DNA from: Patescibacteria group bacterium
GTDB lineage: Bacteria > Patescibacteriota > Patescibacteriia > Patescibacteriales > UBA12075
Direction of reading: 5' to 3'
NCBI GenBank assembly: GCA_018897195.1
Contig: JAHILH010000001.1
Coordinates: forward strand, 284,565 to 348,564
Length of the DNA: 64,000 bases
Shown: in pieces, positions 6,741 through 59,202 of the stretch
Position numbering within the stretch: position 1 is the first letter of the stretch
Layout: the number at the start of each line of letters is the position of its first letter
Notes under the pieces: model-generated
What the model was told of the DNA's origin: nothing
Databases searched by the model: none
What the model saw: the letters and a program-made list of their open reading frames with translations, nothing else
Made by a program: the position numbers and the translations under genes

Positions 6741-6750
6741 ATCTTCTTTC

Positions 6751-6780
6751 GTCATCCCCGCGAAGGCGGGGATCCAGGTA
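6751..6780. repeat. Solo terminal hairpin of the same element family
   Basis: GTCATCCCCGCGAAGGCGGGGATCCAGGTA, matching the right-end type in reverse orientation. No partner end lies within 200 bp. Confidence 0.7.
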
Positions 6781-6816
6781 TTATTTAGATTATTCGTTAT
6801 AATTCTCATCCCAATA

Positions 6817-6913
6817 CCCCTCACCCCGACCCTCTCTCCTCCCAAGGCGGACAGGCCGCCGGGGCGAGGGAGTTTGTATTCCCTCTCCTTTGTAGGAGAG
6901 GGTTAGGGTGAGG
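6817..6913. repeat. GC-rich palindromic repeat, family 2 (CCCTCACCCC / CCCTCTCC units)
   Basis: CCCCTCACCCCGACCCTCTCTCC...GGGGCGAGGGAG..CCCTCTCCTTTGTAGGAGAGGGTTAGGGTGAGG. The outer CCTCACCC/GGGTGAGG and inner CCCTCTCC/GGAGAGGG segments are self-complementary. Confidence 0.75.
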
Positions 6914-8337: not shown

Positions 8338-8364
8338 ATATAATAAGACTAACACCAATTCCCC

Positions 8365-8532
8365 GTCATTCCCGCGAAGGCGGGAATCCAGGCGCCACAA
8401 TGAGCGGGCGCACGATTATAGAGACTAGTCTTGATAAAATATTGGTTATAAAAATACTTTGTTTAATTTTAATTTTCCTTATATTGAAATCATTGTACGA
8501 GGTACCTGGATCCCCGTCTTCACGGGGATGAC
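8365..8532 (+). mobile_element. REPIN/MITE-like element, copy A (168 bp)
   Basis: GTCATTCCCGCGAAGGCGGGAATCCAGGCGCCACA...CGAGGTACCTGGATCCCCGTCTTCACGGGGATGAC. Terminal inverted repeats, no ORF. Lies between the rnpB 3' end and the sugar-transferase start. Confidence 0.8.
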
Positions 8533-8547
8533 AGTTGTATTCCAATA

Positions 8548-8884
8548 ATCTTAAGGCAAGCGATAAGCCGGATTCTGTCGTGGGCAACTATTTATCTAAG
8601 CCTTGATATTGCTATCAAGATCAAGCGGCACTTCCTGGCTTGCGCCAAGACACGGCCTTGCTCCTTGCAGGGTTTACCACGTCACTCTGTCACCAGAGGA
8701 CGAATCGAGTGGTCTCGAAACTTTTCACCTTTCATCCCGATTGCTCGGGACTAGTATTGTCTCTGTGGCACTTTCCCTAGAATTACTCCTGGTGGACGTT
8801 ATCCACTGCAATGTTCGCTCTTGCGAGCGGGAGTCCGGACTTTCCTCCCCGGCCAAAACCGGAGCAACTGCCTACTTACCTTAA
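8548..8884 (-). ncRNA. rnpB: RNase P RNA (bacterial type A-like)
   Basis: The reverse strand contains GGGGAGGAAAGUCCGGACUCCC (5' strand of P4/CR-I), AGUGCCACAGAGA, GGUAAACCCUGCAAGGAGCAAGG and ACAGAAUCCGGCUUAUCG (CR-V). The 5' UAAGGUAAG can pair with the 3' CUUGCCUUA as P1. Ends are approximate to about +/-10 nt. Confidence 0.9.
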
Positions 8885-11403: not shown

Positions 11404-11409
11404 AAGTCC

Positions 11410-11577
11410 GTCATTCCCATGAAAATGGGAATCCATGCGCCACAGATTTTGGATATTTAATTATAGAGACTAGTCTTGATAAAACATTAATAACAAATAG
11501 TACGTCGTAAATTTTAATCCTCCTTATACTGAAACCAATCTACGAGGTACCTGGATCCCCGCCTTCGCGAGGATGAC
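11410..11577 (+). mobile_element. REPIN/MITE-like element, copy B (168 bp)
   Basis: GTCATTCCCATGAAAATGGGAATCCATGCGCCACA...CTACGAGGTACCTGGATCCCCGCCTTCGCGAGGATGAC. Begins 6 nt after the nusG stop. Confidence 0.8.
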
Positions 11578-11667
11578 GGAAGAAATTAAAAATTTAAAAA
11601 TATAAATTAAGAAATAAGCAAATTCGGTGTTTTTAAAAACAGCTTCTACGAATAAGCGCTAAAAGAT

Positions 11668-12939: not shown

Positions 12940-12963
12940 AAATATATATATTATTCATTATTT

Positions 12964-13010
12964 ATTCGCAATTCGCAGATTAATACTAATTAGCAGATTA
13001 GCGTTACAAT
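12964..13010 (+). promoter_or_regulatory. Conserved ATTNGCA heptad array (copy 1), ends 3 nt before the dCMP deaminase ATG
   Basis: ATTCGCAATTCGCAGATTAATACTAATTAGCAGATTAGCGTTACAAT. About 40 of 46 positions are identical to 16457-16503. Confidence 0.6.
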
Positions 13011-15751: not shown

Positions 15752-15802
15752 TTAAACCCACGACGTCTCGAATCCTCGGGACAATGGTGGGCGAAGTAAA
15801 AC

Positions 15803-16366
15803 ATGAAAATAAAAAAGAAAAAAGTTATTGGCATAGTCGGTGAACAAGCTGGCGGAAAAGGCGCAGCTTCTAATATTATTATCAAAAAATACGGCGGTTC
15901 AAGATTGACAACCTCCAATATCTTGCGTCGCACACTAGACAGTATCAATATTCCCGTTAGCCGTGAAAATCTAATCACCCTAGCCCTCCTAATTAAAAAA
16001 GGCTTTGGCAAAGATGTTTTAATGAAGGCCATGTTAAAAGAGGTAGAAAATGAAGATAGCAGCATTGTCATCGTCGACGGCATCCGCATGCCTGGCGATA
16101 CTGATCCATTTGTAGAAGAATACGGCGATGATTTTAAATTGATTTATGTAACCGCCGATCAAAAAATAAGATACGAAAGAAGCTTAAAGCGAGGTGAAAA
16201 AGCCGGCGAATCAGAAGCTAGTTTTGCTGAATTTATGGAAAAAGAAAATGCTGAAACCGAAAAATACATCGCTAAAGTAGGAAAAAAGGCTGATTTTAAG
16301 ATTGTAAACAATAAAGATCAGGATGAATTGGAAGAAAAAATTATCGCCGTAATGGAGAAAATATAG
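15803..16366 (+). CDS. P-loop NMP-kinase-fold protein, paralog 2 (variant P-loop GGKGA)
   Basis: Collinear with paralog 1 (VIGIVGEQAGGKGA, SRENL, VIVDGIRM, IRYERS). The P-loop Thr is replaced by Ala. Confidence 0.5.
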   Translation: MKIKKKKVIGIVGEQAGGKGAASNIIIKKYGGSRLTTSNILRRTLDSINIPVSRENLITLALLIKKGFGKDVLMKAMLKEVENEDSSIVIVDGIRMPGDTDPFVEEYGDDFKLIYVTADQKIRYERSLKRGEKAGESEASFAEFMEKENAETEKYIAKVGKKADFKIVNNKDQDELEEKIIAVMEKI

Positions 16367-16410: not shown

Positions 16411-16445
16411 GAGGAGTGCTTTAAACAAGGCACTTCTTTTATTCT
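16411..16445 (+). terminator. Hairpin plus T-run between kinase paralog 2 and tmk-dut
   Basis: GAGTGC-TTTAAACAAG-GCACTT followed by CTTTTATT. A short stem, so moderate confidence. Confidence 0.45.
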
Positions 16446-16456
16446 ATTTTCAATAT

Positions 16457-16503
16457 ATTCGCAATTCGCGGATTAGCATTTATTAGCAGATTAGCATTAT
16501 ACA
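16457..16503 (+). promoter_or_regulatory. Conserved ATTNGCA heptad array (copy 2), ends 5 nt before the tmk-dut ATG
   Basis: ATTCGCAATTCGCGGATTAGCATTTATTAGCAGATTAGCATTATAC. Confidence 0.6.
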
Positions 16504-19866: not shown

Positions 19867-20014
19867 CCCTCTCCTTTGCAGGAGAGTGTTAACGTAATCC
19901 TCGTCCGACCAATAATAAAGGGGGCAGGGTGAGGTAGAACGAGCGAAGAATATCAGATGTGTTATCTCAAATAATACCCCCTCACCCCAGCCCTCTCCCG
20001 GCGGGGCGAGGGAG
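19867..20014. repeat. GC-rich repeat, family 2 (two units flanking a ~60-bp spacer)
   Basis: CCCTCTCCTTTGCAGGAGAG...GGGCAGGGTGAGG ... CCCCCTCACCCCAGCCCTCTCCCGGCGGGGCGAGGGAG. The same units as at 6817-6913, in swapped order. Confidence 0.75.
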
Positions 20015-20066
20015 AATATAATGGCAATCTTTTTATTATGCTTATTTATATTTATCTTTTAAGCTC

Positions 20067-21300: not shown

Positions 21301-21373
21301 CGCCTATAGCTCAGCCGGTAGAGCAACAGCCTTTTAAGCTGATGGTCACAGGTTCAAATCCTGTTGGGCGCAC
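21301..21373 (+). tRNA. tRNA-Lys (anticodon UUU), no encoded CCA
   Basis: Manual cloverleaf: acceptor GCGCCTA/TGGGCGC, D arm GCTC..GAGC, anticodon loop CTTTTAA, T arm ACAGG-TTCAAAT-CCTGT. One A:A mismatch at 27:43. Confidence 0.85.
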
Positions 21374-21388
21374 ATATTTTATCAAAAT

Positions 21389-22961: not shown

Positions 22962-22969
22962 TTCCATGC

Positions 22970-23131
22970 GTCATTCCCGCGAAGGCGGGAATCCAGGCGC
23001 CACAATGAAAATATTTTAAATTATAGAAACCTAATCTAATAAAGATTGTATACAAAATATTATTTTAATTAATCTACTATATCTAGAACCATTATTCGAG
23101 GTACCTGGATTCCCGCCTTCGCGGGAATGAC
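22970..23131 (+). mobile_element. REPIN/MITE-like element, copy C (162 bp, most diverged interior)
   Basis: GTCATTCCCGCGAAGGCGGGAATCCAGGCGCCACA...TTCGAGGTACCTGGATTCCCGCCTTCGCGGGAATGAC. Begins 8 nt after the dnaB stop. Confidence 0.8.
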
Positions 23132-23153
23132 GACTCGATGGATATTCAAACTT

Positions 23154-25954: not shown

Positions 25955-25974
25955 AAATTTATATAAATTAATTA

Positions 25975-38905: not shown

Positions 38906-38915
38906 ATTTTTTTCC

Positions 38916-39084
38916 GTCATCCCCGCGAAGGCGGGGATCCAGGTACCTCGTAGATTGTTATCAGTATAAGGAGAATTAAAATTTACAAAGTATTATTTAT
39001 TATCAATATTATTATGAAGATGAATCTCTATAATTATGTATCCAAAGTATGTGGCGCCTGGATCCCCGCCTTCGCGGGGATGAC
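38916..39084 (-). mobile_element. REPIN/MITE-like element, copy D (169 bp, inverted relative to A-C)
   Basis: The reverse complement aligns end to end with copy B, including the internal blocks ATTATAGAGA, AATTTTAAT, CTCCTTATACTGA and CTACGAGGTACCTGG. Lies between the mreB stop and the pgk start. Confidence 0.8.
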
Positions 39085-39094
39085 GATTTAGAAA

Positions 39095-54031: not shown

Positions 54032-54066
54032 CCCTCACCCCAGCTCTCTTCTGGCGGGGAGAGGAA
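54032..54066. repeat. GC-rich repeat, family 2 (single unit)
   Basis: CCCTCACCCCAGCTCTCTTCTGGCGGGGAGAGGAAG fills the 39-bp gap between two convergent genes. Confidence 0.65.
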
Positions 54067-54069
54067 GCT

Positions 54070-59158: not shown

Positions 59159-59168
59159 ATTTGATACT

Positions 59169-59202
59169 CCCTCACCCTGGCGGGAGAGGGCTGGGGTGAG
59201 GG
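59169..59202. repeat. GC-rich repeat, family 2 (hairpin form)
   Basis: CCCTCACCCTGGCGGGAGAGGGCTGGGGTGAGGG. The arms CCCTCACCC and GGGTGAGGG pair. Lies 10 nt upstream of the murJ start. Confidence 0.7.

Follow-up and report, generated by a model that had tools for sequence, protein, structure and literature searches.

Inverted hairpin ends of short intergenic elements in a Parcubacteria genome are probably NTS/SRM sites of Ssn-family GIY-YIG nucleases

Inspection of a 64,000-nt stretch of a Patescibacteria genome, hereafter the window, reveals a family of short intergenic elements bounded by inverted hairpins. With a probability of roughly 70%, we consider these hairpins to be copies of the Neisseria Transformation Sequence (NTS) within the wider Ssn-related motif (SRM), the recognition sites of Ssn-family small GIY-YIG nucleases, and the elements themselves to be gene-less derivatives of ssn units. 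The hairpin stems covary; this covariation is real and statistically solid, and the constraint that it reveals is that of a single-stranded DNA (ssDNA) stem-loop maintained end by end.

A repeat search combined with a mismatch-tolerant pattern search places four elements of 164-171 nt and one solo end in the window. Copy A (8364-8533, + strand) is 170 nt long and gene-less, with a left NTS hairpin at 8364-8392 read on the + strand and a right hairpin at 8505-8533 read on the - strand. Copy B (11409-11578, + strand; 170 nt) lies between nusG and rplK, its left hairpin at 11409-11437 and its right hairpin, again read on the - strand, at 11550-11578. Copy C (22969-23132, + strand; 164 nt) lies between dnaB and a ybaB-like gene and has canonical NTS at both ends. 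Copy D (38915-39085, - strand; 171 nt) has an interior inverted with respect to copies A-C, and both of its ends are of the ATCCCCGC/GCGGGGAT type. The solo, right-type end (6750-6795, + strand) comprises an NTS hairpin at 6750-6778 followed by ~17 nt of subterminal sequence; it is located 9 nt upstream of the start of a minus-strand gene and abuts a second kind of GC-rich repeat. The interiors of the doublets are conserved, AT-rich and contain no gene. All copies occupy short intergenic gaps between genes of the same direction (nusG-rplK, dnaB-ybaB and the gap beside the RNase P RNA), so that they are probably transcribed, inside likely operons.

Several other features of the window adjoin or resemble these elements. 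A bacterial class A RNase P RNA is found at 8548-8883 on the - strand (Rfam, 199.9 bits), and 15 nt separate its 3' end from copy A's right end. The second GC-rich hairpin repeat family, CCCTCACCCC..CCCTCTC...GGGG.GAGGGAG, is present at 6818-6912, 19979-20022, 54032-54067 and 59159-59202; the first of these copies is longer and nested (-27.8 kcal/mol) and directly adjoins the solo NTS end. A 60-nt direct repeat (12947-13006 and 16440-16499, 78% identical) lies just upstream of the dCMP deaminase and thymidylate kinase/dUTPase genes and may serve as a shared control region for nucleotide-metabolism genes. A likeness of the hairpins to type I-E CRISPR repeats was dropped for want of any array structure.

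Read from the outside inwards, the consensus end is a 29-nt hairpin, CGTC-ATYCCCGC-GAAG-GCGGGRAT-CCAGG, consisting of an 8-bp stem and a 4-nt loop. Its 28-nt motif occurs eight times in the window at three or fewer mismatches, versus zero occurrences in 100 shuffles, and the left end of copy B is a ninth, more diverged end. Re-reading of the window confirms the hairpins described for copies A and B in an earlier note on this DNA. The right end of copy A (8512-8527) reads CCCCGT-CTTC-ACGGGG, a compensated C:G to T:A pair, with TGTCAT replacing CGTCAT; the left hairpin of copy B (11416-11429) reads CCCAT-GAAA-ATGGG, two compensated pairs; and the remaining ends read CCCGC-GAAG-GCGGG or its complement. 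The claim that such double changes keep pairing while the two ends of one element diverge also stands, as left-right differences amount to 5 of 29 positions in copy A, 9 of 29 in copy B and 0 of 29 in copies C and D. The description of the right end of copy B as the GC version needs a correction, as this end carries an unpaired G to A change at 11570 (pair 11559/11570), which reads as C.A on the + strand and as a T.G wobble on the motif strand. Also overlooked was a third covarying pair, ATT...AAT in four ends and ATC...GAT in five (T:A versus C:G).

Despite these substitutions, every end variant folds as the same DNA hairpin with an 8-bp stem and a 4-nt loop, at -6.3 to -9.7 kcal/mol and with z-scores of -2.4 to -3.5. 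The canonical ends reach -8.9 and -9.7 kcal/mol, the right end of copy A -8.4 and the left end of copy B -6.6. A half-changed version of the latter reaches only -3.6 kcal/mol.

Covariation was then assessed in public genomes, viral contigs and metagenomes, using scans that left the six inner stem pairs as N, so that the stems themselves were unable to bias the sample. The genome scan returned 127 matches in 120 loci, ~5 of these matches looking like chance; 104 of the 127 are fully Watson-Crick paired, and 14 different stems are represented. Hosts include Dehalococcoidia, Alphaproteobacteria, Binatia, Verrucomicrobiia, Actinomycetota, Nitrospirae, Moraniibacteriota and others. Among viral contigs, 50 of 65 matches are fully paired, with further stem types. 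The family metagenome set comprises 74 pattern-matching ends (from 56 fetched loci plus the window) and 22 partner ends taken by position only, for a total of 96, and 72 of its 94 alignable ends are fully paired. Together, the scans of genomes, metagenomes and viral contigs yield hundreds of NTS copies across many phyla.

Statistics were computed on distinct sequences, with column-paired counts compared with 500 shuffles. In the cross-phylum set, 89.3% of cells are paired versus 77.8 ± 1.2% in shuffled data, and 36 cells are double-changed versus 12.4 ± 2.6, with double changes at six of the eight pairs. None of the 500 shuffles reaches the observed value on four of five measures; on the fifth, the count of pairs with a double change, one of 500 does so. 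In the family set the corresponding values are 97.8% paired versus 87.8 ± 0.9% and 25 double-changed cells versus 6.0 ± 2.9 (0/500 shuffles). Shifting the 3' partner by 1-3 columns reduces pairing to 19-54%. The 25 compensated cells of the family set compare with 13 uncompensated ones, 8 of which are G.T wobbles. That is to say, paired changes exceed unpaired changes, as the earlier note had anticipated.

The scans also recovered arrangements of the motif other than the doublets of the window. Convergent +/- NTS pairs are common in other phyla. A Lysobacterales MAG carries the motif in a direct tandem array with a 72-nt period (L016, 5947-6195), and a Dehalococcoidia MAG carries four + copies followed by four - copies (L038, 5563-6611), both unlike the window doublets. 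The NTS pattern is present in 63 predicted viral contigs (L189-L251, IMG/VR), often near contig ends.

The identity of the hairpins emerged when the dRS3 consensus was searched for in the literature, which pointed to Chenal et al. 2025, Nat Commun (PMC11893778). In that work the NTS is given as CGTCATTCCCGCGMAVGCGGGAATCYRG, a member of the SRM, and its partner SsnA is a 94-aa (~95) single-domain GIY-YIG (cd10448) ssDNA endonuclease. SsnA binds the motif as ssDNA only, with neither duplex DNA nor RNA bound, acts on one strand alone and cuts just upstream of the motif; ssDNA-only, strand-specific binding and upstream cutting are established for the Neisseria and Wolbachia enzymes only (PMC11893778). 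Five window ends were compared base by base with the 28-nt consensus. The left end of copy A and both ends of copy C match it exactly, while copy D and the solo end each show a single difference, a compensated T:A to C:G pair. The degenerate SRM pattern fits eight of the nine ends, with the left end of copy B falling outside. All nine ends have GTC ahead of the palindrome and C behind it, bases that are conserved across phyla while the stems vary. The bases directly upstream of the palindrome and the C directly after it are critical for SsnA, and loop changes are tolerated by the published enzyme (PMC11893778).

The earlier note had ascribed the paired changes to selection on each stem-loop, as ssDNA or as RNA, rather than to duplex inverted-repeat recognition. 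The local, single-stranded stem-loop is upheld by covariation in three independent samples and by the published ssDNA-only binding (PMC11893778); the RNA form is considered below. Structure alone is insufficient for recognition, since altering the palindrome with the hairpin kept abolished the activity of Neisseria SsnA (PMC11893778). A given enzyme may therefore use the compensated variants only poorly.

The partner gene was found in metagenome contigs fetched using the window element's own ends. Related low-GC contigs contain ~420-nt units composed of an NTS, a 98-aa GIY-YIG gene and an inverted NTS, and ssn genes typically have the motif on both sides (PMC11893778). The units at L171 5365-5785 and L149 894-1316 each have inverted NTS ends around a 98-aa ORF, and the unit of L164 (also L180) has a left hairpin with a 26-nt loop insertion; all measure 421-423 nt. 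An ssn gene near NTS/SRM is seen in L149, L164, L171, L178, L179 and L180. PF01541 (GIY-YIG) is the only strong domain match of the 98-aa proteins (E 1e-15 to 5e-18), a weak partial T5orf172 match overlaps the N-terminal part of PF01541, and the PDB holds no relative. A protein search gave 2229 Ssn relatives. Among the matches listed, homologues at 60-70% identity bear the NCBI names Parcubacteria, Patescibacteria and Pacebacteria, and the window host is likewise named 'Candidatus Parcubacteria bacterium'. Alignment with the flanks of the ssn units extends over 45-50 nt at the right of the window elements and over ~36 nt at their left, with a weaker stretch beyond the latter, and the aligned flank includes sequence directly after the ssn stop codon. 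Since the element ends are thus homologous to unit flanks, the window elements are probably ssn units that lack the gene.

Two further observations concern the units themselves. In L171 (4727-7092), the ssn unit has a LexA-like repressor gene on one side and a Y-family (DinB-like) polymerase gene on the other, as judged from translations. The 26-nt loop insertion in the left hairpin is kept by the orthologous contigs L164 (1532-1585) and L180 (1597-1650).

Another Ssn, sharing 72% identity with the L171 protein, has three copies of a variant motif, CGTCATCCTCGGGCTTGACCCGGGGATCCAG, in its flanks (L178 2946-3510, L179 1832-2396), and in this motif a T.G is retained at the stem position that holds the T.G in copy B's right end. 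The pairing of this Ssn with its own SRM variant fits the co-evolution of enzyme and site described for Ssn and SRM (PMC11893778).

While the stems vary, the CGTC and CCAGG flanks and the asymmetric GAAR loop are fixed, which is the signature of an oriented, structure-plus-sequence site. The GAAG/GAAA loop is conserved across phyla, and its complement never occurs on the motif strand. Mismatch types on the motif strand reveal no overall strand bias (12 G.T versus 11 A.C among distinct sequences), and the sole mismatch pointing to one strand is the recurrent T.G at stem pair 5, the type seen at the right end of copy B, which is present in at least 10 copies with four different loop variants. 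An element of the same subfamily, situated at an unrelated locus in L125, also carries the left hairpin of copy B (stem CCCAT/ATGGG, loop GAAA), so the double change of this hairpin arose in an ancestor that was still being copied. These variants therefore did not arise in place.

These patterns bear on intrastrand template switching, an established process for quasi-palindromes, in which changes are copied from arm to arm with no protein reading the hairpin. Copies A and B have changed by transitions only, which cluster in a 20-nt palindrome, and template switching could well produce the second change of each pair. As an account of the hairpins it is nevertheless unlikely, because it leaves the conserved non-palindromic loop GAAG/GAAA and the asymmetric CGTC...CCAGG unexplained and would have erased the T.G at pair 5, which persists across the copies noted above and in the second SRM subfamily. 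The motif is, moreover, tied to a specific nuclease gene.

The window itself contains no GIY-YIG gene by GIY-YIG motif pattern, by tblastn with two Ssn proteins or by Pfam on ten small ORFs. One weak tblastn match (16094-16192) was rejected as a nuclease, being a P-loop kinase. A further ~19 kb of flank (~9.4 kb on the left, ~9.5 kb on the right) holds neither NTS nor ssn. Pfam calls on contigs covering nearly all of the window include no transposase, HUH, IS110 or GIY-YIG domain. The nearest Ssn with an ENA source comes from the sibling sample ERZ27248239 and not from ERZ27247113, and the cognate enzyme may be absent from the genome of the window.

The gene content between the ends is decisive for the enzyme class. 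HUH enzymes also read ssDNA hairpins, and the earlier note had named REP/REPIN-type elements handled by such enzymes as one reading. The window elements do resemble REPINs and their RAYT partners: both are short intergenic hairpin repeats, often forming inverted doublets (four in the window), with no target duplication, the single-copy enzyme gene is flanked by its own repeats and stems are kept by compensated changes. The differences are that the enzyme here is GIY-YIG rather than HUH and that no GTAG-type 5' tetranucleotide is present. IS200/IS605 elements and PATEs share subterminal ssDNA hairpins on a defined strand, the lack of target duplication and small gene-less derivatives. IS200/IS605 hairpins, in contrast, lie on the same strand, their ends are not inverted repeats as the window ends are, and they use another enzyme class; no TnpA is found here. 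That an HUH (Y1) transposase handles the window elements, as it would those of the REP/REPIN or IS200/IS605 type, is extremely improbable, as the sole ORF between such ends in related contigs is the 98-aa GIY-YIG nuclease Ssn, in all five loci seen, and the Pfam calls for the window include no Y1 transposase domain. The attribution to HUH enzymes is therefore abandoned in favor of an Ssn-type nuclease.

The location of the copies in same-direction gaps, where they are probably transcribed, together with a GAAA loop of the GNRA type, would suit a function at the RNA level, with the hairpins acting as transcript stabilizers, processing sites or attenuators. We consider such a function quite unlikely, with an RNA side effect possible. 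No T-run follows the stems, and none of the hairpins is called terminator-like, in contrast to real candidates nearby (8991-8970 and 9712-9689). Each element carries the hairpin in both orientations, which favors no single RNA sense, and the hairpins have no matching Rfam family. Hundreds of unrelated contexts across many phyla contain the motif, and its RNA form is not bound by Neisseria SsnA (PMC11893778). The transcript hairpins offered as an alternative in the earlier note thus find no support. A promoter or terminator role likewise finds no support.

Comparison with relatives provides evidence on mobility. Contigs L130 and L131 are syntenic with the window at 20.5-29.4 kb and 15.1-17.2 kb, with 71-88% identity. 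The orthologue of copy C in L130 (7728-7893) has both hairpins identical, and the whole element is ~94% identical. Two tRNA genes of L130 enclose a complete element, and the window has only a 16-nt spacer there (21373-21388). At two further sites, the window gaps at 25955-25974 and 15752-15802, L130 and L131 each carry an NTS-bearing insertion where the window is empty. Related genomes thus differ in element presence. In addition, ssn genes that are 95% identical occur in different gene contexts. Neither the four copies of the window nor the filled/empty site shows a target-site duplication. The 6 nt upstream of the ends are pyrimidine-rich and G-poor, with C or T at position -1 in 62 of 75 cases.

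Two side observations attach to these copies. The genes flanking copy C are ~85% identical between the window and L130, versus ~94% for the copy itself, and the higher identity could reflect either whole-element constraint or more recent exchange. Same-organism short-read contigs L187 and L188 break off at copies C (~23.1 kb) and D (~38.9-39.1 kb), and NTS repeats thereby fragment short-read assemblies of this organism.

Hairpins of this kind could also serve mainly as landing sites for another mobile element, such as one with an IS110/Piv-type recombinase. The dRS3 repeat, which is the NTS core, is a documented integration target of Neisseria filamentous phage (PMC11893778, its refs 28-30). 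We regard this explanation as very improbable, as neither a recombinase nor a prophage lies beside any copy in the window or the syntenic contigs, and gene-less doublets with conserved interiors would be left unexplained.

The closest known system remains the NTS/SRM with SsnA. Shared features are the 28-nt sequence identity, the oriented hairpin with conserved CGTC upstream and C after the palindrome, the NTS-ssn-NTS layout in related contigs with a 98-aa single-domain GIY-YIG gene, and the intergenic location of copies. The window differs in its host, which belongs to Parcubacteria (Patescibacteria); in copies that are 164-171 nt doublets without a gene; and in having no ssn gene within 83 kb. 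With respect to Neisseria dRS3 repeats and NIMEs, four of the nine window ends contain ATTCCC-N8-GGGAAT, and in both cases inverted hairpins of the dRS3 type enclose repeat units of 50-150 nt. The phylum is different, however; the other five ends read ATCCCC...GGGGAT or a variant, and the interiors are unrelated to RS units. Classical MITEs, such as the Neisseria Correia element, are similarly 100-200 nt long, gene-less and multi-copy, with terminal inverted repeats and presence/absence between relatives. In contrast to MITEs, the present elements lack a target-site duplication, their ends need not match, and the parent unit encodes a nuclease rather than a DDE transposase.

Taken together with the published properties of SsnA, these results suggest the following mechanism. 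Each end would be read on its own strand, as an ssDNA hairpin between 5' CGTC and 3' C(CAGG). The nuclease would bind the folded hairpin and cut a few nt upstream, just outside the element, so that each strand of an inverted doublet would have a single cut site, located at the outer 5' edge of the element. Each end would have to fold separately: copies that lose pairing would no longer be propagated or maintained, while stems changed on both sides would stay competent and could found new subfamilies. A requirement for a folded stem at each end separately would account for stems that covary while left and right ends drift apart. By analogy with the characterized enzymes, we infer that a Parcubacteria Ssn acts on the window copies and that its action drives their spread, with propagation or retention of a copy presumably depending on each end folding alone, which would favor compensated changes regardless of any match between left and right ends. 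GIY-YIG nucleases are not known to join strands or to form an HUH-type covalent intermediate. Because strand joining is not a known activity of these enzymes, host replication or repair would have to complete new insertions.

Mobility of the flanked NTS-ssn-NTS unit was raised by Chenal et al. as a hypothesis only (PMC11893778). We hold it as a tentative possibility, on balance doubtful, that the ~420-nt NTS-ssn-NTS unit is a self-standing, active mobile element in Patescibacteria, with the GIY-YIG ssDNA nuclease as its only protein, spawning the 170-nt gene-less derivatives. If so, it would be the smallest autonomous mobile element known in bacteria, and it would move without transposase-type strand transfer, for instance through nicks at the 5' edge on each strand followed by host replication or repair.

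The NTS/SRM family itself is already known, having been described in 2025, and the published account mentions neither Patescibacteria nor gene-less derivatives (PMC11893778). What is new here is modest: the host group, a gene-less doublet form with clear descent from the ssn unit, and comparative insertion polymorphism. In Neisseria, the Ssn/NTS system limits the integration of incoming ssDNA that carries the motif (PMC11893778); a corresponding role in the Parcubacteria cell, drawn by analogy, is speculation. The present comparison provides clear evidence that compensated changes preserve NTS/SRM hairpins at each end individually, as ssDNA recognition predicts. The presence/absence sites and gene-less derivatives bear on the question, posed in the 2025 paper, of whether NTS-ssn-NTS is mobile (PMC11893778). 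The findings also extend the Ssn/NTS system to candidate-phyla-radiation bacteria, a group with tiny genomes that is thought to rely on the uptake of foreign DNA.
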